64,000 nt of DNA. Origin: an uncultured Bacteroidia bacterium (lineage in GTDB: Bacteria; CAIWAD01; BS150m-G50). The DNA is taken from contig CAZCRT010000003.1 in assembly GCA_964501185.1 (NCBI GenBank), positions 24,752 through 88,751 of the forward strand. The letters run 5' to 3'. The notes beneath the pieces are model-generated. The model was not told the DNA's origin. It searched no databases and saw nothing but the letters and a program-made list of their open reading frames with translations. How positions within the stretch are numbered: the stretch's first letter is position 1; every line of letters starts with the position of its first letter. This document shows, piece by piece, positions 422 to 60,323 of the stretch. The position numbers and the translations under genes were made by a program.

Positions 422-422
422 T

Positions 423-4931: not shown

Positions 4932-5179
4932 AATTTTTCCGCTTCCGGGGTCGGACCAAGTTATGTTCTTGATATTCTGATGTTTAACACTTGGATTCCT
5001 GTGAAATACAGGCGATGTCAGGCGGTTTTTCACTCTATTTGGGGTCGGACCTCAGTATGTTTATAAAAAACATTCCATTAGGGTCGTTTTTCACCCATTT
5101 ATTGCCCTTAGAGCAGGTTTTTCGGCCCAAAAACTGTCGCAAAGAAACCACGAGGTTCTTTCAAACAGGTAGTGTCGGT

Positions 5180-6199: not shown

Positions 6200-6377
6200 G
6201 ATCTATCCTTCCAGGTTGATTCACTTTCAGACCACCCTCTGCTGGTGGTTGACAATGCGTTTGTGATACAACCAATATCCAGCACTTAACCTGATAACTC
6301 AAGCACAACATGAGATCCGCTGTCCTTGAGTTTTATGTGTGATTTCAGAAACAGTTTCAGCCTCGACCCTGTCCGCG

Positions 6378-41937: not shown

Positions 41938-42006
41938 GCTCTCCTGACCGGAGTGAGTCGAAATGCTGAAAGTACAGACAGGAAATTCGAGAATGAGGCT
42001 CGTGCC

Positions 42007-45676: not shown

Positions 45677-47816
45677 GAACGGAAAAATGACCATCCTCGA
45701 AGTCCCCGCTCCGGCACCTGGCAAAGGTATGGTGATGGTGCGTAATCACTTCTCACTTATCAGCGCAGGTACGGAAGGGAGCAAGGTGATTACAGCCCGT
45801 AAGAACCTGCTCAGCAAAGCCAGGGAAAAACCGGACCAGGTCAGGCAGGTTCTGGATTCAGTAAAAACTGAAGGCCTCGCATCCACCTACAGAAAGGTCA
45901 TGAACAAACTTGATGCGCCTTCACCCCTCGGGTACAGTTGTGCGGGTGAAGTTATCGCTGTCGGGAGTGATATCGGCGATCTTGAAGTTGGTGACTATGT
46001 TGCCTGTGGCGGTGCCAGCGCTGTCCATGCTGAAATTGTCAGTGTGCCACGTAATCTCTGTGTACCGGTTCCTGACGGTGTCAGCCTGGAACAGGCGGCA
46101 TATACCACTGTTGCAGCTATCGCACTGCAGGGGGTACGTCAGGCTGATTTGCGAACAGGAGAGAACTGTGTCGTTATCGGGCTCGGTTTAATCGGCCAGC
46201 TGACAGTACAGATGCTCAAGGCATCCAATATCAAGGTGATGGGTGTGGATATCAGCAGCGTGGCCGTTGAGTTGGCGATCTCTTCCGGTGCGGATTCAGC
46301 CCGGGTGCGTGACAGCGTAGGGCTTGAAGAAGCTGCGCTTCAACTGAGTGATGGTTTTGGTGTCGATGCGGTAGTTATCACCGCCGGCAGCTCCAGCCTG
46401 GACCCGGTGGAGCTGGCGGGACAGCTATGCCGGAAAAAAGGGAAGGTGGTAATCGTGGGTGCGGTACCTACCGGTTTCTCCCGCAAGCACTACTATGAGA
46501 AGGAGCTCGACCTGCGTATGTCCTGTTCCTACGGGCCGGGACGCTACGACGCCGACTACGAAGAGAAAGGGGTTGACTATCCAATCGGGTTCTGCCGTTG
46601 GACGGAAAACCGCAACATGCAGGCATATCTTGAGATGTGTGACAGGTTGGACATCAGCCTGCTGACAACACACACCTATGCCCTTGATGACGCCATTAAC
46701 GCTTTCGATATGATCGTTGATAAAAGTGAACCGTTCGCAGGCATCCTGATCAGATATAACATCGAGACGGAACCGGAGACGAAAATTCTACTCCAGGAAC
46801 CTCCTGCTGCCGCCGGGCAACCACGAGTCGGGTTTCTGGGAGCGGGGTCCTTCGCGCAGAAGTTCCTGCTGCCAGACATCGGGAAACAGGCCGAGCTGAT
46901 CGGTGTGGCAACAGCCAGTGGCAATAACGCCCGTAATGTTGCAGACAAGTATGGTTTCACCTACGCAACCGGTAACAGTAATGATATTCTGGACGACGAT
47001 GACATAAATACCATCTTCATCGCCACCCGCCATAACCTCCACGCCGAGCAGGTGCTGGCAGCCCTGCAGAAGGGTAAAAATGTCTTCGTGGAAAAACCGC
47101 TCTGTCTGACTACCGATGAGCTTGAACGAATTGCCGGGGCTTATCGTCAGGGAACGGCCCGGTTGATGGTGGGGTTCAACAGGCGTTTTGCACCGCTGCT
47201 GCAGAAGATAAAAAAAGCGCTGCCTGATGGCATACCGGTAGCGATGAACTACCGTATCAATGCAGGGGCGATTCCTGCCGACAGCTGGATTCAGGACCCC
47301 GATATCGGCGGTGGCCGCATTGCTGGTGAGGTGTGTCACTTTATCGACCTGGTACTCTTCCTTGCAGGCAGCCCGTTTGCACGGGTGGATAGCCACATAA
47401 TGAAAACCGCTTCCGGGTTGAATGATACTCTGGTAATAGCTCTGGCTTTTGCAGATGGCAGCGTGGCCAATATCAGTTATTTTGCTAACGGCGCGAAATC
47501 CCTGCCGAAGGAACAACTGGAAGTTCATTGTGGCGGGCAGAGCTGGGTACTGGACGATTTCAAGCGACTGAACATTTATAACGGTTCCAGGAAGAAATCA
47601 TCGACCGGCGGGCAGGATAAGGGGCACGCCCGGGAGGTGGAACTCTTTCTGCAGGCTGTCAGCGACGGCTCTCCTGCTCCAATATCATTTGAGGATATCT
47701 ATCAGGTGACCGCTGCTACCCTCAGTATTACCAGCAGGGCTAAGGAGGAGAGCGCTGATACCCCTGTGGATGGTAGCCTGCAACAGGACCAGGCAGTTTC
47801 AACATCAGGAGAATGA
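45645..47816 (+). CDS. bi-domain oxidoreductase (MDR/ADH-like plus Gfo/Idh/MocA), paralog 2
   Basis: Same architecture as 36791-38872; Rossmann VVIGLGLIGQLTVQM and Gfo/Idh/MocA C-half. GTG start at 45645; alternative ATG at 45687. Confidence 0.75.
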   Translation: MNVKQITQNLKNGKMTILEVPAPAPGKGMVMVRNHFSLISAGTEGSKVITARKNLLSKAREKPDQVRQVLDSVKTEGLASTYRKVMNKLDAPSPLGYSCAGEVIAVGSDIGDLEVGDYVACGGASAVHAEIVSVPRNLCVPVPDGVSLEQAAYTTVAAIALQGVRQADLRTGENCVVIGLGLIGQLTVQMLKASNIKVMGVDISSVAVELAISSGADSARVRDSVGLEEAALQLSDGFGVDAVVITAGSSSLDPVELAGQLCRKKGKVVIVGAVPTGFSRKHYYEKELDLRMSCSYGPGRYDADYEEKGVDYPIGFCRWTENRNMQAYLEMCDRLDISLLTTHTYALDDAINAFDMIVDKSEPFAGILIRYNIETEPETKILLQEPPAAAGQPRVGFLGAGSFAQKFLLPDIGKQAELIGVATASGNNARNVADKYGFTYATGNSNDILDDDDINTIFIATRHNLHAEQVLAALQKGKNVFVEKPLCLTTDELERIAGAYRQGTARLMVGFNRRFAPLLQKIKKALPDGIPVAMNYRINAGAIPADSWIQDPDIGGGRIAGEVCHFIDLVLFLAGSPFARVDSHIMKTASGLNDTLVIALAFADGSVANISYFANGAKSLPKEQLEVHCGGQSWVLDDFKRLNIYNGSRKKSSTGGQDKGHAREVELFLQAVSDGSPAPISFEDIYQVTAATLSITSRAKEESADTPVDGSLQQDQAVSTSGE

Positions 47817-47840
47817 GTCACGCATACTTCCACGAGCAAT

Positions 47841-48974
47841 ATGATCACCAATCTTGAAAACTGGCTCGTCCGGCATGAATGGCGGGGCTGGGACCCTTTT
47901 GACGCGCTGAACTCCCCCTTCCTGAAAACACTCACCCTGGGCGGGCGCTATCCAGGTATCGCCCTGCTGCAACTGTTGAAGCGGCTACCTCTGAATCTGC
48001 GCCCACTGTTGCGCGTACCACAGGTACACAATGCCAAGGCGATGGGGTTATTCCTTAACGCACATGCAATAAGACTTGAACGGGATCGCAATGAAAACGA
48101 TTTGCAGCGTATCACTTTCTTCGCTGACTGGCTCGCGCAAAATGCCAATCGGGAGTATGGTGGCGCTGGCTGGGGTTACCCGTTTGACTGGCCAAATCGA
48201 ACTTTCAACTGCCCTGCCGGGACACCAACTGTTGTCAACACTGCTTTCATTGGATTTGGACTGCTGAAGGCGTATCAGGTGACACAACGCCCGGCACTAC
48301 TCGATCTGGCACTATCTGCGGCAGAGTTCATTGCTGAAGGGTTGAACCTGCACAGTGATGACAGCGGGGAGTGTGCCAGCTACACGCCGCTTGATAATGC
48401 ACAGATTCATAATGCCAACCTGCTGGGTGCAGCACTGCTTCTGGAAGTCGGTTCCCTTCAGCAGAACGGGGAGTTGATCGACGGCGGTAGACGCCGTCTG
48501 AACTGGTCTCTGGCCGGTCAGGCTGATGATGGTTCCTGGCCGTATGGGACGACTGAACGCCAGAGTTGGATTGACAGCTTTCACACCGGTTATAACCTTG
48601 AAGCACTTGACCGGGCTGTCTCGGTAACACATGATCCAAAGGTTGAGGCTGCCCTGGATCGGGGATACCGCTTCTACATTGATAATTTCTTCCTGCATGA
48701 CGGAACCGTGAAGTACTACCATAACAACGCATACCCGCTTGATGCCCATGCCTTCGCGCACGCTGTTATTACCCTGACCCGGCTGCAACGGCTGGATTCG
48801 CGCAGTCTGCCCTTGCGAGAGCGTGTATTGGAGCAGATGATGCGGCGTTTCTGGAACAAGCGTGGATTTTTCTACTACCAGCAGAAGAAGCGTTGTACCA
48901 ACCGTATCGCCTATACTCGCTGGGTACAGGCCTGGAGCTACCTGGCGCTTATAACCTGTAATGATGGGAATTGA
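47841..48974 (+). CDS. hypothetical protein (possibly alpha/alpha-toroid sugar-modifying enzyme, e.g. C5-epimerase-like)
   Basis: 377 aa, Trp/aromatic-rich (...GGAGWGYPFDWPNRTF..., ...WIDSFHTGYNLEAL...). Functional guess comes only from fold-like composition and neighbourhood. Confidence 0.4.
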   Translation: MITNLENWLVRHEWRGWDPFDALNSPFLKTLTLGGRYPGIALLQLLKRLPLNLRPLLRVPQVHNAKAMGLFLNAHAIRLERDRNENDLQRITFFADWLAQNANREYGGAGWGYPFDWPNRTFNCPAGTPTVVNTAFIGFGLLKAYQVTQRPALLDLALSAAEFIAEGLNLHSDDSGECASYTPLDNAQIHNANLLGAALLLEVGSLQQNGELIDGGRRRLNWSLAGQADDGSWPYGTTERQSWIDSFHTGYNLEALDRAVSVTHDPKVEAALDRGYRFYIDNFFLHDGTVKYYHNNAYPLDAHAFAHAVITLTRLQRLDSRSLPLRERVLEQMMRRFWNKRGFFYYQQKKRCTNRIAYTRWVQAWSYLALITCNDGN

Positions 48975-48975
48975 G

Positions 48976-49986
48976 ATGTCACTGATCTGGATAGATATTG
49001 ACAACCTGCCGCACATTCCGATTTTCCAGCCTTTGATTAGGGAGTTCGAAGAGGCGGGACATAAGGTTCTGCTTACCGTCAGAGACTTTGCTTACTCTGT
49101 TGAAAAGCTGGAAGACAGCGGACTGAGTTTTCACGTGATCGGCAGGCACTACGGCAAAGCGACTGTGAGCAAAGTAGCCGGAACTCTTCTGCGGGCCGGA
49201 CAGCTGCGCCGGTTCCTGAGTGATTACACTGTTGACCTGGCGGTATCACATTCTTCCCGTTCTGCAATCCTGGCCAGCCGGTCATTACGCATACCAACTG
49301 TTGCCATGTTTGATTACGAGCATGTTTCCACAACCCTGCAGGAAAAATTCGCCACTGATATCCTGGTACCGGAGCTTCTGTTAGGGGATGGTTCGAACTT
49401 AAGTTCCAGCAAATATCACGGCTACCCCGGGTACAAAGAGGAGATCTACCTGGCTGATTTTGTTCCCGTTGCTGATTTCCGCCAGGAGTTACAGGTACCA
49501 CCTGATTCGATTCTGGCAGTACTGCGCCCACCTGCGACAGAAGCGCATTACCATAATCCTGAGGCGGAAGCCATCTTTCAGGGGATACTGGAAAGGCTTT
49601 CCGCAAACGGTCTGTTCACGCTGATCACACCCCGCTCAACCGCTCAGGCAGCTCAATTCAACAATCTTCCCGGGGAACGATTTCGTGTGCTGACCCGACC
49701 GGTTGATGGTTTGAATTTGATATCAGCTGCAGATTTCGTAATATCGGGTGGCGGAACGATGAATCGAGAAGCGGCACTACTGGGAACACCTGTTTACTCC
49801 TTCTTCAGAGGTAAATCTGGCAGCCTGGATCGAAACCTGGCAGCATCGGGAAAGCTGGTATTTATAACCAGCATAGAGGAAGTATTACAAATCCCCTGCC
49901 AGCGTAAGAAACTCACTCAACATCACGCTGTCGGGCAAGAGGTTAAGAAGTTTGTGTCACGTTTCCTGATTGAGCAGCTACAGTAA
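48976..49986 (+). CDS. DUF354 domain-containing protein (GT-B-like, polysaccharide-cluster associated)
   Basis: N-terminus ...IWIDIDNLPHIPIFQPLIREFEEAGHKVLLTVRDFAYSVEKLE... matches the DUF354 start pattern as I remember it (IWIDI.N.PHV..F.PII.EL...GHEV.ITARD). Start at 48976 with GGGAATTGAG RBS, just past the upstream stop. Confidence 0.55.
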   Translation: MSLIWIDIDNLPHIPIFQPLIREFEEAGHKVLLTVRDFAYSVEKLEDSGLSFHVIGRHYGKATVSKVAGTLLRAGQLRRFLSDYTVDLAVSHSSRSAILASRSLRIPTVAMFDYEHVSTTLQEKFATDILVPELLLGDGSNLSSSKYHGYPGYKEEIYLADFVPVADFRQELQVPPDSILAVLRPPATEAHYHNPEAEAIFQGILERLSANGLFTLITPRSTAQAAQFNNLPGERFRVLTRPVDGLNLISAADFVISGGGTMNREAALLGTPVYSFFRGKSGSLDRNLAASGKLVFITSIEEVLQIPCQRKKLTQHHAVGQEVKKFVSRFLIEQLQ

Positions 49987-50042
49987 TGTGATGCGAATTT
50001 ACGATGGTAGTTACCTATGAGTACTAACCCGGATGTCTTTTC

Positions 50043-50063
50043 ACCTTACACTGCAGGTGTAAG
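50043..50063 (+). promoter_or_regulatory. SD-occluding hairpin upstream of the phosphoglycosyl transferase gene
   Basis: CCTTACAC-TGCAG-GTGTAAGG (perfect 8-bp stem). The 3' arm overlaps the SD AAGGAG (50060-50065), 10 nt before ATG 50076. Confidence 0.4.
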
Positions 50064-50075
50064 GAGTGTGGTATC

Positions 50076-51524
50076 ATGATCCTTGGAAAGCGACCGGCTT
50101 ACAAATATTTCCTGGCGTTGATGGATTACATCATCGTCAACTTCTCTTTTGCCCTGGCAATGCGCCTGCGCTTTCGTCCCCGGATTGATATCATAAACCT
50201 GAATACGCTTGAAGTCATTCCGGAGATTATCGTCTTTGCGCTGCTTTCGATTCTCTGGATCTGGATCCTCCAGTACCACAATCTCTACAAGTTCAAAGTG
50301 TTCCTCAGTGTTGCCCGTCAACAGGTGCTGTTGCTGCGTTCGCTTGCCTACTCGACCCTGGTGATGGTGCTGCTGCAGTACTTTATAAAACCGTCCGGAA
50401 AAGTGGAAAGCCGCCTGGTTATACTACTGACCTTCCTGTTCAGCCTGGTACTGCTTTCAATCTGGCGACTCCTCATCTACCGCAGGCTGTATCGATTGTT
50501 TGCACGTAATAAGATGTTACGACGCAGTTCAGTAATCGTCGGCTTTGGCGAACAGGCTAAGAAGATAGCCGCCAGTATTCTGGCTGATAAGGAGATCGGT
50601 AAGCAGCTGATCGGATTTGTCGATAACGACATTCCGGTAGGTACCCCTGTTTTCAGTAAATTCTTCAATATTGGCACTACCTCGGAACTCGCTGAAATTG
50701 CCAGAGACTATCAGATAGACGAGGTGATCATAGCTTCCGAGCATCTCTCTCACGAGGATATGCTCGACCTGATTGATTTATGTCACACCATCAAAATGCC
50801 GGTACAGGTATCAGCACCACTCTACCGGGTCATTTCCGACCGCACACAGGTAGAAGTGTATAATGATATTCCGGCTGTTCAGTTCTCCAATCCGCAGATT
50901 GCGCCCTGGTACAGAGTCTACAAAAGAGCTTTTGATCTCGTCGGCGCCCTGTCAGGGATTCTGCTTTTTGCTCCTTTCTGGCTGCTGATAATTTTTCTGA
51001 TCAGGTTGGATTCACGGGGTTCGGTGCTCTTCAAACAGCAACGTATCGGCCTGGGTGGAAAACCATTCAGCTTTTATAAATTCCGTTCCATGCGCACTGA
51101 TGCTTCTGACGCTGATCATCGCAGGTTTGTTCAGGAGTTCATGGCCAGTAGCGAGACAGATGACAACAAAACACAGAAGATTCAGAACGACCCCCGTGTC
51201 ACAAGAATTGGCTCCTTCCTGCGCAGGTACAGTCTTGATGAACTGCCACAATTTCTGAGCGTTGTGCGGGGAGACATGAGCCTGGTCGGGCCCCGCCCCT
51301 GCCTGCCCTGGGAATGGGAGGAGTACGAGGACTGGCAGAAACGACGTCTCAGTGTAAAACCGGGTTGCACCGGTCTCTGGCAGGTGAGTGGTCGCAGTGA
51401 AGTCGGGTTTAAGGATATGGTAGTGCTCGACCTGTATTACGCTGACAATGCATCCCCCTGGTTTGATCTGCAGTTGATATTGAAAACTATTCCGGTAATG
51501 TTTTTTGGCAGGGGAGGACACTGA
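50076..51524 (+). CDS. initiating polyprenyl-phosphate hexose-1-phosphate transferase (bacterial sugar transferase, WbaP/WcaJ-like)
   Basis: Four or five N-terminal TM helices and a central CoA-binding-like domain. C-terminal ...[54 protein letters not shown]...[21 protein letters not shown] is the Bac_transf signature. Confidence 0.85.
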
Positions 51525-51525
51525 T

Positions 51526-52995
51526 ATGAAATGTATCACAATCTTCCTGCTGTTAATTTCTGCTGCTCTTTCTTATGGCCAGACCGAGCACCCCGCATTT
51601 CGCCAAAGGCTGGATTACTCCACCTGTTGTGACAGCCTGACAGAGGATCTCAATCGTACTTTCCCCTTCAGTGCCGGTCAACCTGAAGGTGTCAGGAACT
51701 GCGGCCATCACAATTTTCTTGATCATGATCTCAATCATAAGCTCGAGTTACGCCAGCAACCCGGTATCACTGCAGGTGTCTGGTTGTTGAGCAGCATGCG
51801 TGATACGTCCGCCTGGAAACCGTTGCACCGTTTACAATCGCGGCTGCAGGTTAAACCGCTCACCTGGCTTACACTCCAGCACAGCTTTGAAGTTTACTCA
51901 CATGACGTTCCTTCCAATCCCTGGTCGGCTGATTGGGGTGGTCTCTACGCCGGTTGCCGGGAGGCTTTTCTGTATTTACAGAGGGGCAGTTTCCGATTAC
52001 TTGCCGGACGCTTTGCGCCTGTCACCGGCCCACATGGTTCTAACAGCCTGCTCTACTCTTCTCGTCATACACTCGATGGTTATGATCTGGAATTCAGCCT
52101 GCCTGTTGGCCGGGGGGTACTCTGGTTTACAGCAAACCACTGGCAGCTTGACGATCAACAATTCGAATCCGGTATCGCCCGGCGCTATCTTGCCGGACAC
52201 AGATTGGGATATACCCGGACAGGCAGCTATTCGGTAGCTCTGGCGGAGCTGTTTCTCTATGGTGGTATCAATGCAGTTCCGACTGCTTCCACCCTTAACC
52301 CCTTCCTGCTGTATCACGCCCTGCAGATGAATGACTTTGAAGGAAACACACTGTATCACCTTTCCGGATGGTGGCGTCCCCGGCGTGGACTGCTTTTAAC
52401 AACAGAGCTTCTGCTGGATGATTTTCAGCTCGACAACAGCCAGCCATCAGACCGTGAGCCTGCCGAGTGGGCTCTGGCGTTGGGGGTACGTGCAGCACCT
52501 CAAACACTACCTGTTGTGGTCGCACTTGAATACACCCGTGCTGCCCCACGGACTTATAATGCTCAGCTTTCCTACCAGCGTTGGCAGCAACATGGTCAAC
52601 CCCTGGCTCATCCCCGGGGGAGTGATTTTGACAGAGTCTCTTTGCAATGCAGCTATAACGGCTGGCTTTTCCTGCAGCCTGCGTTGATTACGGCCTACAG
52701 TCGAACTGGTGAACACGGCCTGTTTGCAGATTGGGACACTCCCTGGCTGGACCCTGCCGCAGGTGATGATTACAGCGAGCCTTTCCCGACAGGTGTAGTC
52801 GAAAAGGAATGGGCGACAACATTGCAGCTGACCGGGCTTTGGCATCAATATGAGTTTATTCTCCGGGGCACTTCACTGCGATGGACCAATTACCGGCATT
52901 TATCCGGCAGTCAGGACGATTTGCAGATTGAACTTGAAATCAATCTGTTTCTGGAGCAGTTATTTAATCGGGGATTTGCTCCCCGTGACCTATAA
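51526..52995 (+). CDS. secreted hypothetical protein, putative outer-membrane beta-barrel (Wzi-like?)
   Basis: Signal peptide MKCITIFLLLISAALSYGQ with GGAGGA RBS. Aromatic/Gly-rich alternating segments consistent with a beta-barrel. No homology call possible. Confidence 0.4.
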   Translation: MKCITIFLLLISAALSYGQTEHPAFRQRLDYSTCCDSLTEDLNRTFPFSAGQPEGVRNCGHHNFLDHDLNHKLELRQQPGITAGVWLLSSMRDTSAWKPLHRLQSRLQVKPLTWLTLQHSFEVYSHDVPSNPWSADWGGLYAGCREAFLYLQRGSFRLLAGRFAPVTGPHGSNSLLYSSRHTLDGYDLEFSLPVGRGVLWFTANHWQLDDQQFESGIARRYLAGHRLGYTRTGSYSVALAELFLYGGINAVPTASTLNPFLLYHALQMNDFEGNTLYHLSGWWRPRRGLLLTTELLLDDFQLDNSQPSDREPAEWALALGVRAAPQTLPVVVALEYTRAAPRTYNAQLSYQRWQQHGQPLAHPRGSDFDRVSLQCSYNGWLFLQPALITAYSRTGEHGLFADWDTPWLDPAAGDDYSEPFPTGVVEKEWATTLQLTGLWHQYEFILRGTSLRWTNYRHLSGSQDDLQIELEINLFLEQLFNRGFAPRDL

Positions 52996-53013
52996 ACACA
53001 AAGGAGTAAGATC

Positions 53014-54018
53014 ATGAATATTGGTATTATCGGACTCGGCTACTGGGGACCAAACATTGTCCGCAACTTTGCTACCAACCCTCGTGTTGAAAAAATCGTC
53101 TGTGCAGACCTGCGTGAAGAGGCGCTGCAGAGGGTTAAGGGAATGTTCCCGGCCGTGGAGGTAACAACCGATGTTGACTCAGTACTCACTGACAGTAACC
53201 TGGATGTGATTGCAGTAGTGACACCTGTTGACACACATTATGACCTCGCCAGAAAGGCATTGGAGAATGGCAAGCATGTCCTGATAGAAAAACCGATGAC
53301 CACTACTTCACAGCAGGCTGAGGAGCTGGTCGAAATGGCTGCTGCAAGGAATCTCGTGTTGCATGTCGACCACACTTTCATCTACACAAGTGCGGTTCGC
53401 AAGATGAAGGAACTGGTTCAGAGCGGGGAGCTGGGTGAAATCCGCTATTATGATTCTGTCCGGGTCAACCTCGGATTATTCCAGCATGACATCAATGTTA
53501 TCTGGGATCTGGCACCTCACGATATCTCTATCATGTCCTATCTACTGGACGAGAAACCAACCAGCGTTCAGGCTATCGGCACCCGTACCAGCGAAAGTGA
53601 CGTTGAGTATATCGGTTATCTGACCCTGAATTTCGACAGTGGCATGATTGCTCACTTCCATGCTAACTGGTTATCTCCTGTCAAGATTCGCCAGACGCTT
53701 ATCGGTGGCACCAGTAAGATGGTAGTTTATGATGACAACGAACCCTCTGAGAAGATCAAGGTCTATGATAAAGGCATCGAAGTGACATCACGTGAAGGTG
53801 CTTACAAGCAGATGATTCAGTACCGTTCCGGTGATATGTGGGCACCGAGGCTGGATAATCTGGAAGCGCTCAAGTTTGAGATGAATCACTTCCTGGATTG
53901 CATTGAAAAGGGAGTAGCATCCGACACCGACGGTCAGGCCGGACTTGATGTTGTTCGTGTCCTTGAAGCCTCAAGCCGCTCAATTGAACAGAGTGGGAAG
54001 CAGATACCAATAGGCTGA
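53014..54018 (+). CDS. Gfo/Idh/MocA family NAD-dependent sugar dehydrogenase (WbpB-like)
   Basis: MNIGIIGLGYWGPNIVRNF...HVLIEKPM... is the Rossmann plus EKP motif of this family. Confidence 0.8.
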   Translation: MNIGIIGLGYWGPNIVRNFATNPRVEKIVCADLREEALQRVKGMFPAVEVTTDVDSVLTDSNLDVIAVVTPVDTHYDLARKALENGKHVLIEKPMTTTSQQAEELVEMAAARNLVLHVDHTFIYTSAVRKMKELVQSGELGEIRYYDSVRVNLGLFQHDINVIWDLAPHDISIMSYLLDEKPTSVQAIGTRTSESDVEYIGYLTLNFDSGMIAHFHANWLSPVKIRQTLIGGTSKMVVYDDNEPSEKIKVYDKGIEVTSREGAYKQMIQYRSGDMWAPRLDNLEALKFEMNHFLDCIEKGVASDTDGQAGLDVVRVLEASSRSIEQSGKQIPIG

Positions 54019-54127
54019 TTCCTTTTTGCATGAAGATTCCGGTTTTTCTTACCCGCCGGTCTGCTTATCCTTTTGTTAAGCAGATCGGCTTATTGTATCA
54101 CATGAGTAGTTTCAGGAAGCAGAACAG

Positions 54128-54865
54128 ATGAACCGTCTTTACATGCTGGGCCCATGCAGCATAGATTCAGAGGATCGACTTATAGCCACCGCCAGTCTGT
54201 TAAAGGAACTGGGGGTGCAGATTCTCCGTGGTGGTACATACAAGATGCGTACCAGCCCTGCTTCATGGCAGGGGCTGGGCGAAGATGGATTACGTCTGCT
54301 GACAGGTGTGGCTCGTGAACACAATCTCCAGTCATTGACAGAGATAACTGATCTCCGGCATCTCGATCTTTATCTGAAGCATGGTGTGGAGATGCTTCAG
54401 ATTGGTTCCCGCAACATGTTCAATTACCCGCTGTTAAAGGAGCTGGCCGGTTGTGGTTTGCCTCTACTGTTGAAGCGTCACTTCGCAGCCAGCCTGGATG
54501 AGTTCATGCAGGCATCAGCCTACCTTGACGGGGCGCCACAGGTGTATCTATGTGAAAGGGGCATCCGTTCACATGACACCCATTTCCGCTTCACATTTGA
54601 CATTAACGCCATCGCCTGGCTGAAGCAATATTCAGGACGGCCGGTAATAGCTGATCCAAGTCATGGAACAGGTGAACGTGAGTATGTGATACAAATTGCA
54701 GGGGCAGCTATTGCGGCAGGCGCCGATGGGGTACAGGTTGAAGTACATCCTGATCCGGAACATGCAAGATCAGATGCGCGCCAGTCACTTGATCTCACGG
54801 AAGCAAAACAAATGATTATTCACTGTGAGACACTGGCGTCTGCGCTGGATGACATGAAATCCTGA
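54128..54865 (+). CDS. DAHP synthase / KDO8P synthase family (type I-beta-like) aldolase
   Basis: GPCSIDSED, LRGGTYKMRTSPASWQGLGEDGL, IGSRNMFNYPLLKEL, VIADPSHGTG. Short (245 aa), no regulatory domain; N-terminus may extend upstream. Confidence 0.65.
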   Translation: MNRLYMLGPCSIDSEDRLIATASLLKELGVQILRGGTYKMRTSPASWQGLGEDGLRLLTGVAREHNLQSLTEITDLRHLDLYLKHGVEMLQIGSRNMFNYPLLKELAGCGLPLLLKRHFAASLDEFMQASAYLDGAPQVYLCERGIRSHDTHFRFTFDINAIAWLKQYSGRPVIADPSHGTGEREYVIQIAGAAIAAGADGVQVEVHPDPEHARSDARQSLDLTEAKQMIIHCETLASALDDMKS

Positions 54866-54883: not shown

Positions 54884-56458
54884 CTACTGAAGCGATGCCC
54901 TTGAAATCAGACTACTGGCGGTCATTTCTTCCGGCACATCCAATCCCAGAAGCTCCAGCACAGTGGGGGCTATGTCTGCCAGTTTTCCCCGCCCGGCAAG
55001 CTCCAGGCCGTCATCCTTCATGGAAATGTATATCAAATCTACCGGGTTGACTGTATGACTCGTTCTGGGTGCGTTGCGTTCCCGGTCTATCATCTCCTCT
55101 GCATTGCCGTGATCCGCGGTGACCAGAATATGAGCCCCTCGCTTCAGAAAGCTGTCTACCAGCCGCCCCACATTTTCATCCACCACTTCAATAGCTCGAA
55201 CTGCTGCTTCGTAATCACCGGTATGGCCAACCATATCGCAATTGGCATAATTCACTACGATGAAATCGAAATCCGTCTGTTCGCTGAGCTCCAGCAACTT
55301 ATCTGTTACAATATAAGCTTCCATTTCCGGATGACTGGCAAAGGCTGCCGGGTCAAAACGTCCGGGAATCTCCACCTGCGTCTCACCGGGAAATGGCCTG
55401 GTAGACTTCCCGTTAAAGAAACTGGTCACATGACGAAATTTCTGGGTCTCCGCAATCCGCAGCTGTTTCATGCCGGCCTGTGATACAACCTCCCCGAGGA
55501 GTTTTGTTAATCCTCCGCCTGCGTCTATCGGCTCCATCAGGTAATTTTCAAACTCATCATAATATCGAGTCAGCCCCTGGTAGATCAACTGCGGCCGCCT
55601 GGTTCGTACACCCGGATAAGTTTCCTCAATAAAAGCCTTCGAAAGCTGTATGGCTCTGTCCTGGCGATAGTTTGTATGGAGTATAGAATCACCATTCCGT
55701 ACTCCGGAGTATTCCCCGATTACATGTGGTGGAATGTATTCGTCTACCATTTCTACATCATCAGGCGTCCGATCATCCCGATAAGAAGTCGCAATTGCTG
55801 TATGTACCGCAGGAACCCTGCGACCGATGGCATTTGTAATACAATCATATGCGAAATCTGTCAACTCCCAGTTTTCAGAGCGATCCATAGCGTAGTAGCG
55901 TCCCATCAATGTACCTATCCGGCAGTTGCCGACTTCATCCATCACAGTTGTAAGCTGGTCTATAAAATCACCTGCGCTGCGTGGCGGTGTATCACGGCCG
56001 TCCAGAAAGGCATGAATAATTATCTCGCCTTTCCCGTAGGCGGCACGCGCCTCCCGGATAAACTGATAGAGGTGCTCCTGATGTGCATGCACACCTTCGT
56101 CCTGTATAAGCCCCATGAGATGCAGGCGTGATTTCTGCTCACGCCAGTTGCGAATCAACTGTTGCCAGTTATCTCCATCGAAGAAGTCTCCCGACTGCAG
56201 CGAGTCATCAATCCGCTTCAATTCCTGTATCACAACCCTGCCCGCGCCAATATTCAGATGGCCCACTTCACTTGAACCCTGATAGCCCTCCGGCAAACCT
56301 ACCGCTTCACCGGAACACTCCAACAGGGAACGTGGATATTGTGATTCGTATTTATCGTGATTCGGAGTACCGGCCGACTTAATCGCGTTGCCGTGAGTTT
56401 CATCGCTGATCCCCCAGCCATCTCTTATGATCAGGACCACCTGCTTTTTCATATTCAT
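54884..56458 (-). CDS. gpmI: 2,3-bisphosphoglycerate-independent phosphoglycerate mutase
   Basis: MNMKKQVVLIIRDGWGISDETHGNAIKSAGTPNHDKY... is the iPGM N-terminus and metal site. Start at 56458 with GGGAGAGG RBS; the ORF track extends to 56524. Confidence 0.9.
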   Translation of the reverse strand: MNMKKQVVLIIRDGWGISDETHGNAIKSAGTPNHDKYESQYPRSLLECSGEAVGLPEGYQGSSEVGHLNIGAGRVVIQELKRIDDSLQSGDFFDGDNWQQLIRNWREQKSRLHLMGLIQDEGVHAHQEHLYQFIREARAAYGKGEIIIHAFLDGRDTPPRSAGDFIDQLTTVMDEVGNCRIGTLMGRYYAMDRSENWELTDFAYDCITNAIGRRVPAVHTAIATSYRDDRTPDDVEMVDEYIPPHVIGEYSGVRNGDSILHTNYRQDRAIQLSKAFIEETYPGVRTRRPQLIYQGLTRYYDEFENYLMEPIDAGGGLTKLLGEVVSQAGMKQLRIAETQKFRHVTSFFNGKSTRPFPGETQVEIPGRFDPAAFASHPEMEAYIVTDKLLELSEQTDFDFIVVNYANCDMVGHTGDYEAAVRAIEVVDENVGRLVDSFLKRGAHILVTADHGNAEEMIDRERNAPRTSHTVNPVDLIYISMKDDGLELAGRGKLADIAPTVLELLGLDVPEEMTASSLISRASLQ

Positions 56459-56650
56459 GGACCTCTCCCGTTCCTGCACCTGCTTCGTTGCTTCCATCTG
56501 ACCTCTTCCGGTTTGAAGCATCACCTCAGCTTATGTGAGCAATTTACCACAGGATAATTGTCGCTCCAATCATCACATTTGTTTTCCATGCACTGGAGCC
56601 GGGCGAAATATATATTGAGAGTTACAAAATCACAATCCAGCAGGTGTGTC

Positions 56651-59329
56651 ATGCGATCGTTCTTCTCTCTGTTACTATCGGTGATCCTGTCATTATCGGC
56701 AGCAGGCGGACAGTTGTTACCTGATTCTCTTATCTGCTTCATTGATTCAGCCTGTGCTGAAGCGGGTCTTACTATCCGGGAACTCGGGTTTGAAAAGAAA
56801 TGGGTGGAAGATGACACTTTCCGTCTGGCTCTTATCGATCAGATTCTGGATGAACCGTTGTCGCTGGCTTCTACCGGTGATCAGTTCAACCGTGTGTTTT
56901 CAGACAGCCTCACTCCGGGTCAGTATCTGCCCACACTAACCGACATGCTCGGTTTACCAGTTAACCAGCTCACCTCGCCCCCTGTACCGGTCAGCCTTAA
57001 TACGTTCTCAAAACAACCATCTCTTCCATCCGGAGTGCCCCGGGAAAACAACTGCCCGCAATCTGAATTACCACCAGGTATGAATCTGTTTCTCAGCCAT
57101 GTTGCTCACGCCGACAGCCTGTTGGCGCTTTTCTACAATCAGCTTTCAGTAGAGGACCGCCGTCACATACTATACCAGTCTGTCGCCACCTGGAGTGAAG
57201 AAAACGGTGAGAATTACGAGGGTTTACTCTATTCACCTCCTCCAGAAAGGGACTCGCTTTATGCTGATGTCGGATATGACCGGCTCTATGATATTGCAGC
57301 ACGCACTGACCTGACTCCACTGTTTCAGGCATTTCAGCACTGTGTCAGCGGTGTGGAAGCTATCAGTCGTGATCCGGGTGATTATGAAACACCCTGTCGC
57401 TACAGTACGCCCTGGGGCAGTATCCGGGTAGGTTCTTTTACTGACGATCGCCACACAGAACAGGACTACCTGCTGTTGATAGATCCCGGTGGCAATGATT
57501 GCTATTCTGATGGAATGCCACGCGCAGTAGGTGATGAGACACATCCGGCCATGCAATTCTGTATTGATCTCTCCGGCGATGACCTGTATCACGCTGCCGG
57601 TACAGCTGTCAGCCAGGGTTCGGCAGTTCTTGGAATTGCCATTCTCAGTGATCTCGATGGACGTGACACATACCTGGCTGACATGCACACACAGGGAAGC
57701 GGGCTCTTCGGCGGTGGACTGTTGTTCGATGGTGGTGGTGACGATAGCTACCGGGCTGATTACTTCGCACAGGGCGCCGCACACTTCGGAATCGGGTTGC
57801 TTTTCGATGATGAGGGTGACGATTTGTATCACGCTGCAGCCTGGTGCCAGGGTATGGGGGGCACCTTTGGCAGTGGTACGCTGGTAGACCGCCGGGGTGA
57901 TGATCGTTACAGCGCGGGTGGCGCCTACCTGCACAAGCCTCTGAGGCCACAGGACTATCGCTCCTTCGCTCAGGGTTTCGCCATGGGTTATCGTGATCGT
58001 GCCGGTGGTGGAATCGGTCTTTTGATCGACGGCGATGGTAATGACTTCTACAACGCGGAAATTTATGCACAGGGGTGCAGCTACTGGTACTCGCTGGGCA
58101 TACTGATCGATCAACATGGCAATGATCACTATCAGGCCACCCAGTACGCACAGGGAGCAGGTATACACCTCTCCTGTGGCCTGCTGGCAGATTGCGCCGG
58201 CGATGACCATTATTATTCACGCTTCGGGCCATCACAGGGAACGGGCCACGACTACAGTGTCGGTATGCTGCTGGACAGGCAGGGTGATGACAACTACCAG
58301 GTTTCAGGTGGTATCGGAGTTTCTCTGACAAATTCTTTTGGTATGCTGCTGGATGGTAGCGGCAATGATATGTACAGTTTCAGTGAGGTCTGGGGGCTGG
58401 GTGGCGTGCGTCACGGCCGCGGGTATGCAGGTGCCGCCCTGTTTCTCGATCTGGGCGGGGTGGATGTTTATCCGGCCGCATCTCCCGCAGGTAATGACAC
58501 ACTATGGCATCAACACGATTATGGTATAGGCTGGGACCGGCAGGAAAGCGGTACCCCGGGCGCTACATCCAGCCAACCTGCGGCCGACTCGCTGCAGAAC
58601 GGAAAGACTATGCCTCTCGATTCCCTCTGGAACATAGCGGCGGAATGGGGTGTAGGAGAAAACCGGGTTCGTGTACCACAGGCGCGTAGAGCGCTGGCGG
58701 CCCGGGTTGATTCAGTAGTACCTTTTCTGCGGGAGGAGCGAAAACTGGACAGCACCTCCGGGCTGGTGCGCCGTGCTCTGAAGGTGATCGTAGATGCTGA
58801 ACCGGATGCCATGGCTCCGCTTCTGCTTGAGACACTGACAGACAGCTCCCGGGATGCTCGTATTCAGGCGTTGGGATTACTGGCTGATACCTTGTTTGTG
58901 ACACATGCCACCAGAGTTGCGACCAGAATAGACTCACTAAGCGGTCGGGAACTTCGAACTTCACTACTCACCCTGGGGACCATGCGCAGTCTGAAACACC
59001 TCCCTCTGATCGCAGGCTATCTGGATTCTGAACAGGAACGTTTACGACTTACAGCTGTACGCGCTCTTGCCGCAACAGGTAGCGAAGAAGCTTTGCCGTA
59101 TTTGATAATGGGACTTTATGACCCCATGTTTACTGTTCGCTCAGGTGTGATCGATCGATTGGGGCGTTTTCCACTCAGGAACATCCTGGGGGAGCTTCCA
59201 CCGGATGTGCCACAATATGAGCAACGGCTTGTGCTGGAGAAATGCCTGTTGCGTGCAGAAGATGAAGGTGGGTGGTGGATGAGATGGCGGATCAGAAAAC
59301 GGCTGCGGGCACTGGGTGGAGGGGCATAG
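56651..59329 (+). CDS. secreted repeat protein: ~11 Gly/Asp-rich 28-aa repeats plus C-terminal HEAT/PBS-lyase-like repeats
   Basis: Signal peptide MRSFFSLLLSVILSLSAAGG. Repeats with consensus GDDxYxAxxxAQGxGxxxGxGLLxDxxG (e.g. GNDFYNAEIYAQGCSYWYSLGILIDQHGNDHYQATQYAQGAG...). C-terminus ...ARIQALGLLAD...LTAVRALAATGSEEALPYLIMGLYDPMFTVRSGVIDRLG is HEAT-like. The ORF-track start at 56558 is TTG and less likely. Confidence 0.6.
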   Translation: MRSFFSLLLSVILSLSAAGGQLLPDSLICFIDSACAEAGLTIRELGFEKKWVEDDTFRLALIDQILDEPLSLASTGDQFNRVFSDSLTPGQYLPTLTDMLGLPVNQLTSPPVPVSLNTFSKQPSLPSGVPRENNCPQSELPPGMNLFLSHVAHADSLLALFYNQLSVEDRRHILYQSVATWSEENGENYEGLLYSPPPERDSLYADVGYDRLYDIAARTDLTPLFQAFQHCVSGVEAISRDPGDYETPCRYSTPWGSIRVGSFTDDRHTEQDYLLLIDPGGNDCYSDGMPRAVGDETHPAMQFCIDLSGDDLYHAAGTAVSQGSAVLGIAILSDLDGRDTYLADMHTQGSGLFGGGLLFDGGGDDSYRADYFAQGAAHFGIGLLFDDEGDDLYHAAAWCQGMGGTFGSGTLVDRRGDDRYSAGGAYLHKPLRPQDYRSFAQGFAMGYRDRAGGGIGLLIDGDGNDFYNAEIYAQGCSYWYSLGILIDQHGNDHYQATQYAQGAGIHLSCGLLADCAGDDHYYSRFGPSQGTGHDYSVGMLLDRQGDDNYQVSGGIGVSLTNSFGMLLDGSGNDMYSFSEVWGLGGVRHGRGYAGAALFLDLGGVDVYPAASPAGNDTLWHQHDYGIGWDRQESGTPGATSSQPAADSLQNGKTMPLDSLWNIAAEWGVGENRVRVPQARRALAARVDSVVPFLREERKLDSTSGLVRRALKVIVDAEPDAMAPLLLETLTDSSRDARIQALGLLADTLFVTHATRVATRIDSLSGRELRTSLLTLGTMRSLKHLPLIAGYLDSEQERLRLTAVRALAATGSEEALPYLIMGLYDPMFTVRSGVIDRLGRFPLRNILGELPPDVPQYEQRLVLEKCLLRAEDEGGWWMRWRIRKRLRALGGGA

Positions 59330-60323
59330 TTTACTAACGATTAAGAAACAGGATTCGGCTCAATGAGTCAAAGTACATAGTACTCTTAGATTCGTGAACA
59401 AATTTATTGATTAACAACTACACGGATTGGATTGGCAGTTGAATCTTCAACATCCCGGCCTACAGCATCTTGGAAGTCGCTTTCAGACCAGAACGCTTCT
59501 CTTGTACTCTCCTGCACAAACTCTATGTCGGCGCGCTGAGTGCAATACTCGATAACCTGCTCCGGATACTGGTGCTCAAATATCCTGAATGCTTTCGGCG
59601 TTCCAAGCCCTAACCTGTCCTTTAGATACCTTCTCCCAATTTTGTATTCTAGCCTTGTGTAGTTGTATGATGCAAAACGATGGTCATCAAGATGGTTTGG
59701 AGCATATCTCTTGTCGTAGACAGACAACCGGAGACCAGATTTACCGCGCTTGCCGATGACATATCCCGTCATATTTAAAAGCTTAGGTTCTCCAATATAC
59801 CAAACAGTCTCCTCAAGTAAGTCGCTAGATTTATGCATGCTAAACTCATGGGTGTTCAGGAAAAGTGGAATGTTGCATGCTAGGTCAATTCTAGATACTG
59901 TCATTTTTGTGAAATCAAAATCGTCTTTGTATGACCCATAGATAGCATTCAGCACATGGTATATCTGTGTTAGATTTTCTGTGAATTCATCAGAATCGAA
60001 ATAAAGCCCCTTAATATGCAGGATCAAGCCCCCATGATGGAAGTGCAAATGAAAGAACGATTCTAGGCTTAAATGGGGCTTGTTTATCATCCGCATCCTA
60101 ATGGTATCGTTGAAGAGCTTATCAATGATGTACTTCTTGACCCTTGATTTAGCCTCCGGATCTTTCATTTCCGCTTTGGCAAATGGAAGCCACAATTGAA
60201 AGTAATCTATGAAGTATTTTCTCATGTCAGTGGTATCTGGTTGTTAACTAACCATTTCTCCGGGGTTCTACCTAACAACGCTTTGATTTTTACAACTGAG
60301 TCCTCGTGGCATCACCTGCTTTT
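59330..60323. mobile_element. ~1 kb low-GC islet carrying an orphan Rep_trans-like gene (possible remnant of an integrated rolling-circle element)
   Basis: Visibly AT-richer than both flanks. A single gene lies between the end of the HEAT-repeat gene (59329) and the dnaG stop (60324). A 13-bp palindrome AGTACATAGTACT lies in the left flank (~59371-59383). Confidence 0.35.
59404..60225 (-). CDS. Rep_trans-family (pT181 RepC / CTXphi RstA-like) rolling-circle replication initiator, orphan
   Basis: ...SRIDLACNIP... resembles the RepC TRLDLAFDF motif. ...YVIGKRGKSGLRLSVYDKRYA... resembles RepC YFGVRDSNRFIRIYNKKQE. ...YNYTRLEYKIGRRYLKD resembles RepC HLWRVEIELKRD. RepC sequence recalled from memory, not searched. 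Confidence 0.55.
   Translation of the reverse strand: MRKYFIDYFQLWLPFAKAEMKDPEAKSRVKKYIIDKLFNDTIRMRMINKPHLSLESFFHLHFHHGGLILHIKGLYFDSDEFTENLTQIYHVLNAIYGSYKDDFDFTKMTVSRIDLACNIPLFLNTHEFSMHKSSDLLEETVWYIGEPKLLNMTGYVIGKRGKSGLRLSVYDKRYAPNHLDDHRFASYNYTRLEYKIGRRYLKDRLGLGTPKAFRIFEHQYPEQVIEYCTQRADIEFVQESTREAFWSESDFQDAVGRDVEDSTANPIRVVVNQ

Follow-up and report, generated by a model that had tools for sequence, protein, structure and literature searches.

The gene described here, from a 64,000-nucleotide stretch of DNA of an uncultured Bacteroidia bacterium (the window), encodes what its sequence strongly supports as an envelope protein exported through Sec, one of a large and uncharacterised family, in which a helical N-terminal domain followed by a right-handed parallel beta-helix with a fixed number of 12 rungs makes up one conserved module. 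A HEAT-repeat domain, again with strong support from sequence comparison, appears to be a genuine and dedicated partner of this module, whether it is fused to the module at the C- or the N-terminus or is the product of the next gene downstream, and the partnership is very probably an obligate one. We place high confidence in the predicted fold and in the overall architecture, the features of which are listed in Table 1. The fold is a known one in a new sequence variant, and the family is named in no database.

Table 1. Features of the gene and its product, with positions in the window and residue numbers of the 892-aa protein
Feature	Positions	Strand	Basis
Complete CDS, 892 aa plus stop	56651..59329	+	ORF list, public gene calls
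Predicted Sec-type signal peptide, aa 1 to ~20, MRSFFSLLLSVILSLSAAGG	56651..56710	+	Basic n-region, hydrophobic core
All-helical N-domain, aa ~21-247	56711..57391	+	AF2 helices 25-245, invariant columns
Predicted 12-rung right-handed three-sided parallel beta-helix, aa 249-629	57395..58537	+	Motif G-h-L-h-D-x-x-G-[N/D]-D-x-Y ... Q-G
Rung-6 insertion loop of ~20-25 aa, aa ~423-447 (Y-L-H-K-P-L-R-P-Q-D-Y-R-S-F...)	57917..57991	+	Spacing, invariant columns
Rung-specific conserved stripe of polar and aromatic residues, immediately ahead of the first strand in rungs 7-12	57992..58420	+	Alignment columns
Disordered linker between solenoid and HEAT domain, aa 632-651	58544..58603	+	pLDDT < 50 for 632-651
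HEAT / PBS-lyase-type alpha-solenoid, aa 656-888, ~7 helix pairs	58616..59314	+	Pfam, AF2, structural matches

The open reading frame is real, and the observation made in an earlier note on this DNA is confirmed, with a correction to its length. The 923 aa given there apply only if the frame (56558..59329, + strand) is read from a TTG at 56558; public gene calls and public protein P0001 are identical to the product read from the ATG at 56651, and close homologues begin at the same Met, so that 892 aa is the correct length and the TTG, judged by the homologues, is probably not the start. Residues 300-640 of the earlier numbering thus become 269-609. A promoter and terminator scan gave signals at background level only.

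The N-terminal segment MRSFFSLLLSVILSLSAAGG fits what is expected of a Sec signal (basic n-region, h-region, small-residue cleavage site), with a maximum 12-residue hydropathy of 2.57, and an equivalent hydrophobic segment opens 43 of the 46 homologues, which bears out the signal peptide seen in the earlier note. That note called the protein secreted; the Sec-type export signal stands, and beyond it the protein showed no outer-membrane, T9SS or T1SS signal. Similarly, no beta-barrel translocator, TPS domain, T9SS C-terminal domain, LPXTG motif or lipobox was seen in the window protein or in Pfam searches that included the 46 homologues. Tat export was considered since one homologue lies beside tatC and overlaps it, and was rejected because the signal is of the ordinary Sec type, with no twin-arginine motif, in this homologue as in the window protein.

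Following the signal, the N-domain is predicted by AF2 as helices with pLDDT mostly of 80-96. Its invariant residues comprise the motif E-L-x-F-x-K-x-W-x-x-D-x-x-F-x-L...P-L together with W181. It always stands upstream of the solenoid in family proteins, and the motif is found in HEAT-less, PDZ-fused and HEAT-first forms as well. The domain has no sequence match in Pfam, NCBIfam or the PDB; its profile found only chance-level matches (E >= 0.2) among PDB sequences. For N-domain and solenoid together (aa 21-635), no family was found in Pfam-A (2025), NCBIfam 20.0 or PDB sequences, in a search that took in the window protein and its HEAT-less, PDZ-, C45- and M14-fused relatives.

The solenoid itself is marked by the motif D-x-x-G-x-D-x-[Y/F/C], which occurs 12 times (aa 278, 306, 334, 360, 386, 413, 460, 487, 514, 542, 568 and 600, at spacings of 28, 28, 26, 26, 27, 47, 27, 27, 28, 26 and 32), compared with a mean count of 0.08 and a maximum of 2 in 5000 shuffles. 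A regular repeat does lie where the earlier note had placed it; instead of about 11 copies there are 12 rungs of 26-28 aa, the sixth carrying a 20-aa insertion. Over 552 turns (46 homologues by 12 rungs) the successive turn residues are conserved as D in 95%, G in 99%, N/D in 78%, D in 99% and Y in 97%; turn position 3 is variable, as are those residues of each rung's first strand that face outward. The 47-aa spacing between motifs 6 and 7 is present in all full-length members, and rung spacing, that of rung 6 included, is constant across architectures. Within the rung-6 loop the HEAT-fused subfamily has H428, P430, L431 and P433 without exception, the loop sequence not being the same in other architectures; it is modelled with low confidence (pLDDT < 50 for 426-438 in the full model). 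No tandem repeat could be found in the gene at the DNA level, and the repeats are therefore old.

Modelled alone, the solenoid reaches a pLDDT of 91 and a pTM of 0.91 (full-length model, pLDDT 83), and the model predicts a right-handed parallel beta-helix of stacked rungs with three short strands each. The solenoid anticipated in the earlier note is thus regular in prediction, and neither outcome that would have spoken against it, a confident match of the repeat to a known family or a model with no regular solenoid, was obtained. That note was also right in recognising no named family here, since Pfam (E <= 10) and NCBIfam searches of the window protein returned HEAT-type families only, none of them over the repeat, with no RTX/HemolysinCabind, FG-GAP, Beta_helix or NosD. 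A phmmer search of the solenoid against PDB sequences gave one match, at chance level. With the full-length model as query, Foldseek found nothing in the PDB but HEAT, armadillo and alphaRep proteins, and for this reason the solenoid was modelled and searched by itself. Literature searches for the family turned up nothing relevant.

Of the structures compared with the solenoid model, the best match is region IV of MpAFP (PDB 3p4g), the ice-binding adhesin of Marinomonas primoryensis. This region is a Ca2+-bound right-handed beta-helix of 13 repeats of 19 aa with RTX-like GGxGxDxUx turns, and its ice-binding surface is a flat array of Thr and Asx that point outward from positions 3 and 5 of the turn (PMC3492233). 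By its turn sequences the window family, too, has RTX-like turns in a single ladder, one per rung. The two differ in rung size, 26-28 aa and three-sided in the present family against 19 aa in MpAFP, and in that more of the turn positions are G in MpAFP, which also carries the ice-binding Thr/Asx array; moreover, MpAFP belongs to a T1SS-secreted 1.5-MDa adhesin, whereas in the window protein a helical N-domain follows a Sec signal and the partner is HEAT. Sequence homology between the two is undetectable in the search against PDB sequences. The rung residues G (99%), N/D (78%), D (99%) and Y (97%) match G4, N/D5, D6 and U8 of the RTX nonapeptide, and RTX proteins and the window family are both acidic and exported, the latter as its signals predict. 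In RTX repeats Ca2+ is held between successive turns through backbone carbonyls and the Asp at position 6. In contrast to RTX proteins, however, with their tandem nonapeptides in an 18-aa beta-roll, the window family has a single such turn, a partial nonapeptide, per ~27 aa, with D-x in place of the first two Gly of GGxGxDxUx, and has an N-terminal Sec signal rather than an uncleaved C-terminal T1SS signal, its C-terminus being HEAT. The earlier note's view that the repeats are neither RTX nonapeptides nor FG-GAP agrees with these results: PF00353 (HemolysinCabind) gave no match at E <= 10 for the window protein or at E <= 1 for the 46 homologues, the same proteins had no FG-GAP/VCBS matches, and prediction gives them a beta-helix rather than a propeller fold. 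Pectin-lyase-like proteins (the AlgG/AlgE4 epimerases, PL6 lyases, NosD and phage depolymerases, along with autotransporter and TPS passengers such as Vag8 and EtpA) are only 4-10% identical; the Asp/Gly/Tyr turn ladder is a feature of the window family and not of theirs, the window protein and 46 homologues matched none of the PbH1, NosD and Beta_helix families (PF13229, PF05048 and relatives), Pectate_lyase or the CASH-type Pfam models, and no catalytic motif of any pectin-lyase-like family was identified.

The earlier note had also compared the turns to calcium-binding ones, and an RTX-like turn, D-x-x-G-[N/D]-D-x-Y, is indeed present in each rung; Ca2+ binding itself is something we infer. 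Each rung would contribute two or three side chains, acidic or amide, to a ladder, which would account for a net helix charge of about -30 (-33 for this solenoid; family median -30), and a row of Ca2+ along the turns would stabilise the helix once it is outside the cytoplasm. By analogy with RTX beta-rolls and MpAFP region IV, such a Ca2+ ladder seems rather probable. The Asp side chains could, however, cap the turns by hydrogen bonds, metal-free, and the turn is without the first two glycines of the RTX consensus, with no HemolysinCabind match in Pfam. Loops of the Asp-box, EF-hand or dockerin type, for which the spacings DxDxDG and SxDxGxTW served as comparison, were considered and set aside, the D-x-x-G-x-D-x-Y spacing being unlike them.

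HEAT or PBS-lyase-like repeats had been noted after the repeat block, and they are well supported: HEAT_2 is matched at aa 769-834 with 36.1 bits, above its cut-off of 27.7, HEAT families are matched by all 46 homologues, and the AF2 helices at 656-888 have pLDDT ~85-94. The domain agrees both with HEAT profiles and with a paired-helix alpha-solenoid, and its structural matches are alphaRep (up to E = 1e-11), CpcE/F and YibA. A basic C-terminal tail, also remarked on earlier, is present in the window protein; in the consensus it is not family-wide. Like the PBS-lyase-type HEAT proteins (CpcE/CpcF, YibA, NblB and alphaRep, the last a designed scaffold derived from such repeats), the C-terminal 230 aa match HEAT_2, HEAT and HEAT_PBS. 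Unlike those of the CpcE/CpcF type, the HEAT domain here is exported, to judge by the signal, and tied to a beta-helix module, and its NCBIfam scores fall far below the equivalog cut-offs. The linker marks the point at which other lineages have two genes, overlapping by 4 bp in all four loci where the junction was read (L087-L090). In five of six HEAT-less loci a HEAT gene lies immediately downstream, four of them with the 4-bp overlap; four of these five separately encoded partners have a signal peptide of their own, while the fifth begins with no more than a short hydrophobic stretch. The split HEAT proteins align collinearly with the C-terminal part of the fused forms (56% identity, E = 1e-109), and P0190 and P0255 are permuted, with HEAT first. 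This three-way evidence points to a two-protein complex that can be tested.

Of particular interest is the stripe of rung-specific polar and aromatic residues, which may line one edge of the helix. In the 46 HEAT-fused homologues R448, Y478-W479-Y480, Y499, H506, H533-D534, N561 and R590 are invariant, and R448, Y478, Y499, H506, D534 and R590 remain so in 11 aligned bacterial sequences of differing architecture. Over a wider set H506 is found in every bacterial module and the other five of these residues in most (Y499 is not retained in P0430 or P0190), while the archaeal and Omnitrophica variants lack them all. On this conservation R448, Y478, H506, D534 and R590 are a candidate functional site, either a ligand-binding or a catalytic edge. 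A Ser-His-Asp triad drawn from the S, H and D of the stripe was dropped because conservation of the Ser is restricted to the HEAT-fused subfamily.

Besides HEAT, the module is fused to or encoded beside mostly PDZ domains and peptidases. HtrA-type PDZ domains are fused to it in P0136, P0263, P0406, P0444 and P0458, a C45 hydrolase plus PDZ in P0173, and Peptidase_M14 in P0430; the M14 domain of one fusion has a weak likeness, below the cut-off (E = 8.5e-7), to the murein peptide amidase MpaA. Across 79 loci (ORF calling, all-against-all clustering, and Pfam on 78 operon-like neighbours) there is no universal neighbour, only clade-specific partners. An M6 peptidase gene lies directly upstream in five loci, an S41/tricorn-like protease gene downstream in eight and a Metallophos+CBM9 neighbour in six; a Trypsin_2 gene overlaps the M14-fused form, a SurA-like PPIase is among the clade-specific neighbours, and a molybdopterin oxidoreductase is found in Eisenbacteria-type loci (the one named record being from Eisenbacteria). 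As neighbours the peptidases are clade-specific and do not count as phylogenetically independent cases, and secreted peptidases are in general plentiful in these lineages. In the window the gene is set among housekeeping genes, with a polysaccharide biosynthesis cluster just upstream; Wzz/Wzy/flippase or GT39-type genes are close to some homologues. Metallophos+CBM9, the polysaccharide genes, the molybdopterin oxidoreductase and, at one locus, tatC suggest directions other than peptidases.

We propose that the rigid helix would serve as a platform whose conserved edge (R448, Y478, H506, D534, R590 and nearby aromatics) binds a polymeric envelope ligand, perhaps a glycan strand or peptide, while the HEAT arm, or PDZ domains in other members, would dock partner proteins, most plausibly extracytoplasmic peptidases. 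Periplasmic systems in which a helical-repeat adaptor works with a PDZ protease are known in NlpI-Prc of E. coli and LbcA-CtpA of Pseudomonas, the adaptors being TPR lipoproteins without a beta-helix. The present family resembles them in having a predicted exported alpha-solenoid partner linked to PDZ domains and to S41-type or other envelope peptidases; the association here, in comparison, consists of gene fusion and adjacency only and is clade-specific, and homology is not claimed. Taken as a whole (exported module, HEAT partner, Ca2+ ladder, platform and docking), this is our best explanation, for and against which the balance is about even. Within it, an adaptor or ligand-binding role with peptidases is put forward only tentatively.

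The same edge could instead be an active site, with Ca2+ as cofactor and HEAT as accessory subunit, in an enzyme whose beta-helix acts on an acidic envelope or extracellular polysaccharide (as a lyase, C5-epimerase or glycosidase) or on peptidoglycan glycan strands. The fixed rung number, the rung-specific Tyr, His, Asp and two Arg, invariant in the aligned bacterial architectures, and the aromatic cluster Y478-W479-Y480 would all suit such an enzyme, as would the polysaccharide genes upstream in the window and near some homologues and the weakly MpaA-like M14 domain. We nevertheless think it unlikely, given that neither the window protein nor the 46 homologues have a sequence match to CAZy-type or CASH/PbH1 Pfam families, that the outward first-strand residues are variable, that linkage to polysaccharide genes is not conserved over the 79 loci, and that glycan enzymes are typically without PDZ or peptidase fusions.

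A passive structural or adhesive surface protein, comparable to autotransporter passengers or two-partner-secretion adhesins and anchored by HEAT, is more improbable still: translocator, TPS, T9SS, LPXTG and lipobox signals were not seen and Pfam gives HEAT alone, a fixed rung number with rung-specific invariant polar residues is unlike the variable repeats of adhesins, and the gene lies in a housekeeping setting and is a single copy in each locus examined. The likeness to MpAFP region IV raises the thought of an ice-binding or antifreeze protein, which is scarcely credible in a family found across FCB-group candidate phyla, WOR-3, Cloacimonadota and Eisenbacteria among them, lineages that are for the most part anaerobic and not specific to the cold. 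The rungs, furthermore, are of 27 rather than 19 aa, and the MpAFP ice array needs turn positions 3 and 5 (PMC3492233), whereas position 3 is variable here. Just as hard to credit is the reading in which the repeat is a compositional artefact, the ORF no real gene, or the protein cytoplasmic with a hydrophobic N-terminus that is no signal; nothing favours it except general caution and the mechanical nature of ORF lists, and the conservation (over 1,300 homologues of full length, 34-81% identical, in several phyla) already refutes it, along with the count of 12 motifs against 0.08 expected, the confidently predicted fold and, as regards a cytoplasmic location, the signal peptides that both partners keep even when separately encoded.

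Clustered at 50% identity, the family gives at least 2,700 clusters, most of them from FCB-group candidate phyla (those named above, Latescibacterota, Calditrichota, Delongbacteria and others), with variants in Planctomycetota, Omnitrophota and Thermoplasmatota archaea. The architecture, described earlier as unusual, is shared by thousands of homologues and is not unusual in the lineage. This places the family among the larger exported ones outside curated databases, and thousands of proteins that at present carry the label 'HEAT repeat' or 'hypothetical' could be annotated better with a domain definition built on the 12 rungs and the N-domain before them, together with the D-x-x-G-[N/D]-D-x-Y turn and the R/Y/H/D/R edge. 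Should the Ca2+ ladder be real, RTX-type turns would have here a second architecture, one of three-sided rungs of 27 aa, which would be of interest for studies of how beta-helices fold and for their design. Its biological importance is so far potential. It is possible, if doubtful, that the module is an undescribed Ca2+-dependent extracytoplasmic one with its own binding or catalytic site and an obligate HEAT partner, part of a conserved envelope machine of the FCB group; if so, that machine might, for example, recognise a cell-wall or envelope polymer and hand it to, or regulate, periplasmic peptidases, and the family would represent a new class of envelope adaptor or enzyme and not another passive beta-helix.

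That this gene is real and conserved is strongly supported. The 923 aa attributed to its product in the earlier note are obtained only by counting from a TTG at 56558, which would sit just 33 nt from the divergent ORF listed upstream; the first ATG of the ORF, at 56651, lies 93 nt further 3' and yields 892 aa. Public proteins and gene calls match the ATG form and the nearest homologues share the same Met-Arg start, so we take the protein to be 892 aa long and number it from the ATG Met. Its sequence is identical to public protein P0001, found on at least 10 contigs, and is also called on three public metagenome contigs. The repeat block that the note placed at residues 300-640 is indeed present, with its numbering shifted to 269-609.

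The repeats carry the motif D-x-x-G-x-D-x-[Y/F/C], of which there are 12 copies between aa 278 and 600, spaced by 28, 28, 26, 26, 27, 47, 27, 27, 28, 26 and 32 residues; 5000 shuffles of the protein gave a mean of 0.08 motifs and a maximum of 2. The at least 11 copies of a 27-29-aa repeat claimed earlier thereby become 12 motifs on rungs of 26-28 aa, the regularity itself standing. Over the 12 rungs of 46 homologues the consensus turn is D (95%), x, x, G (99%), N/D (78%), D (99%), x, Y (97%); G-h-L-h stands before it, and Q-G comes some seven residues after it. The 12 units of the protein average 35% identity, and the DNA shows no recognizable tandem repeat, so the repetition is ancient. The net charge of the solenoid is -33 (family median -30, range -36 to -24).

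HEAT repeats, expected after the repeat block, are all that Pfam recognizes in the protein (HEAT_2, aa 769-834, 36.1 bits against a cut-off of 27.7). NCBIfam gives HEAT-type matches only, all sub-threshold, and the first 640 residues have no family match in any of the 46 homologues. RTX, FG-GAP, Beta_helix and NosD models are absent from the family matches of the protein and these homologues, in keeping with the view that the repeat is neither an RTX nonapeptide nor FG-GAP. An AlphaFold2 model built on the 46-sequence alignment (mean pLDDT 83, pTM 0.79) is divided as in the table; the solenoid modelled alone is regular, with 2-3 short strands per rung (pLDDT 91, pTM 0.91). A module consisting of a helical N-domain and a 12-rung right-handed beta-helix is strongly supported.

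Features around the gene (nt of the window) and predicted segments of its product (aa)
Feature	Position	Strand	Remarks
tRNA-Leu	nt 339-422	+	sole RNA gene in the window (ARAGORN, Rfam)
Sugar/polysaccharide biosynthesis cluster	nt 38903-54865	+	long, same-strand, beyond the phosphoglycerate mutase gene
Phosphoglycerate mutase gene	nt 54884-56524	-	divergent, upstream of the solenoid gene
Solenoid gene ORF	nt 56558-59329	+	923 aa counted from TTG (ORF list)
Orphan ORF, 273 aa	nt 59404-60225	-	convergent, between the solenoid gene and dnaG
Signal helix	aa 1 to ~20		AlphaFold2
All-helical N-domain	aa 25-245		AlphaFold2
Beta-solenoid	aa 249-629		AlphaFold2
Disordered linker	aa 632-651		AlphaFold2
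Alpha-solenoid	aa 656-888		AlphaFold2

The signal peptide noted ahead of the repeats (MRSFFSLLLSVILSLSAAGG) has a comparable basic-then-hydrophobic counterpart in 43 of the 46 homologues, and a predicted Sec-type signal is strongly supported, its cleavage not being proven by sequence. Independent support for export comes from the HEAT proteins of split genes, most of which carry signal peptides of their own. A few homologues (P0012, P0017 and P0098) have an R-R pair directly ahead of the hydrophobic core, as in MRRLIFL, so that some lineages may use a twin-arginine signal; the pair is missing from most family members, the window protein included.

Full-length matches to the protein number more than 1,366 (90% clusters) at about 35-40% identity, with candidate division WOR-3, Cloacimonadota, Latescibacterota, Delongbacteria, Calditrichota, Eisenbacteria, Stahlbacteria, Edwardsbacteria and Fermentibacteria among the named sources; the closest of these is Delongbacteria (70%). 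An exhaustive phmmer search for the rung family, with three generic rungs (aa 325-403) as query, returned, at 50% identity, 2,711 clusters with E <= 0.001, of which 1,897 reach E <= 1e-10, from proteins of 346 to 1,198 aa. The repeat spans several phyla and extends, in a looser form, to Thermoplasmatota archaea. Across these sequences the N-domain and solenoid appear as a recurring module, whose rung spacing, including the 47-aa rung 6, is kept across several architectures. The module is found alone (~650 aa; P0139 and more than 2,000 relatives), with C-terminal HEAT repeats as in the window protein, with N-terminal HEAT repeats (P0190, P0255), and behind an HtrA-type PDZ domain (P0136, P0263, P0406, P0444, P0458), a C45 autoproteolytic hydrolase plus PDZ (P0173; NCBIfam 211 bits, cut-off 85), an M14 carboxypeptidase (P0430, Planctomycetota) or LVIVD repeats (P0402).

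A dedicated HEAT partner, fused to the module in the window protein, is likewise strongly supported. In five of the six examined loci where the solenoid gene has no fused HEAT domain, a HEAT-repeat gene (280-370 aa) lies directly downstream, with a 4-bp overlap in four of them; the sixth (L094, homologue P0357) has no adjoining HEAT gene. In all four overlapping loci the HEAT protein has a clear signal peptide of its own, and in the fifth, L093, it has only a short hydrophobic N-terminus, possibly from a start called too late. The separately encoded HEAT proteins are collinear with the domain that fused relatives carry at the C-terminus (residues 668-979 of P0293 against 19-339 of the L088 HEAT protein: 56% identity, E = 1e-109), and the linker of the window protein coincides exactly with the gene split point of other lineages. 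Occurrence as an N-terminal fusion, a C-terminal fusion or an adjacent, sometimes overlapping, gene is the classic gene-fusion pattern that points to a physical or functional partnership, and the separate signal peptides on the solenoid and HEAT proteins show that each part acts outside the cytoplasm.

The majority of the conserved solenoid positions belong to a structural ladder (G, L, D, G, D, Y, Q-G). Another class is rung-specific (R448, Y478-W479-Y480, Y499, H506, H533-D534, N561 and R590) and lies entirely in the segment immediately ahead of the first strand, in rungs 7-12. R448, Y478, Y499, H506, D534 and R590 are invariant in 11 sequences covering the bacterial architectures; in a wider set H506 is kept in every bacterial module and the other five in most. 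The fixed rung number and these polar or aromatic residues look like a binding or catalytic site, which we regard as a candidate. Looser versions of the repeat, from which the rung-specific residues are wholly absent, occur in Omnitrophota and in Thermoplasmatota archaea, in the latter fused to an InhA-like MAM/'choice-of-anchor J' domain. Two such archaeal proteins (P0188 and P0396, Candidatus Thermoplasmatota, ~1,100 aa) have at least 15 looser G-x-D-x-Y ... Q-G rungs and carry that domain at the C-terminus, without the bacterial N-domain signature or the R/Y/H/D/R residues, so this type of repeat is shared between bacteria and archaea.

The window gene stands alone. The polysaccharide cluster, to which any link would be conjectural, encodes GFO_IDH_MocA oxidoreductases, an ADH_N/GFO fusion, DUF354, a Bac_transf sugar transferase and a NeuB-type synthase. 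The convergent orphan ORF, called publicly as 228 or 273 aa, has no Pfam or PHROG match and no family in public gene calls; dnaG and mutS2 follow it. Across 79 loci family genes have no universal neighbour. Clade-specific same-strand neighbours are a Metallophos+CBM9 protein (6 loci), an M6 (InhA-type) peptidase (5 loci, gaps of 1-15 bp) and a tricorn/S41-type protease (8 loci), and a SurA-like PPIase gene is divergent upstream in 7 loci. In the planctomycetal locus L092 (5222-8931) the homologue begins with an M14 carboxypeptidase domain that is weakly MpaA-like; its gene is overlapped at the start by one for a Trypsin_2 protease and has two M16 peptidase genes in its vicinity. Loci L088-L090, whose sole named record is Eisenbacteria, have an upstream gene (about 4660-7004) for a molybdopterin-binding aldehyde-oxidase/xanthine-dehydrogenase-type subunit of ~770 aa, overlapping the HEAT-less solenoid gene by 4 bp, as well as an upstream DsbH-like thioredoxin gene and, a few kb downstream, a gene for a 1,500-aa C25 peptidase/beta-helix/FlgD_ig protein; here an oxidoreductase is joined with the exported module in an operon. 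In L094 (4291-6899) the P0357 gene overlaps tatC by 4 bp, and its product has an apparently Sec-type signal peptide that lacks a twin arginine. Peptidases, counting neighbours and the PDZ, C45 and M14 fusions, are the most frequent theme; however, the loci are phylogenetically non-independent and the lineages generally peptidase-rich.

Structural comparison of the solenoid listed phage depolymerases, EtpA, UpaB, PL6 alginate lyases, AlgG, AlgE4 and NosD, and the best match to the full-length model was 3p4g, region IV of the Marinomonas primoryensis adhesin MpAFP. That region has been described as a right-handed, Ca2+-bound beta-helix with 13 repeats of 19 aa, each with an RTX-like GGxGxDxUx (PMC3492233), and as a single-ladder RTX-like helix it is the nearest analogue; of the RTX nonapeptide, the rung turn here shares positions G4, N/D5, D6 and U8 but not G1-G2. 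If RTX and MpAFP are a guide, the D-x-x-G-[N/D]-D-x-Y ladder probably binds a row of Ca2+ ions that would stabilize the very acidic helix once exported. MpAFP binds ice, and the same role for this family is very improbable, as is the reading of the protein as an artefact or a cytoplasmic one, given its conservation and predicted export.

More tentatively, the conserved edge of the helix (R448, Y478, H506, D534, R590) might take a polymeric envelope ligand while the HEAT arm, or PDZ in relatives, would dock partner proteins, most plausibly peptidases. It is rather less likely that the beta-helix is itself an enzyme active on polysaccharide or peptidoglycan. A passive adhesin is more doubtful still; a fixed number of rungs with rung-specific invariant residues would not be expected of a generic repeat scaffold.

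The right-handed parallel beta-helix fold and HEAT repeats are already known, and the family proteins are in public databases under uninformative names, always 'HEAT repeat domain-containing protein' or 'hypothetical protein'. As far as Pfam, NCBIfam and the literature searched show, this family of 26-28-aa rungs and its turn motif, the N-domain that goes with it, the conserved R/Y/H/D/R edge and the obligate HEAT partnership are undescribed. The finding is of moderate interest: a large, phylum-spanning, exported family with a testable two-component organization.
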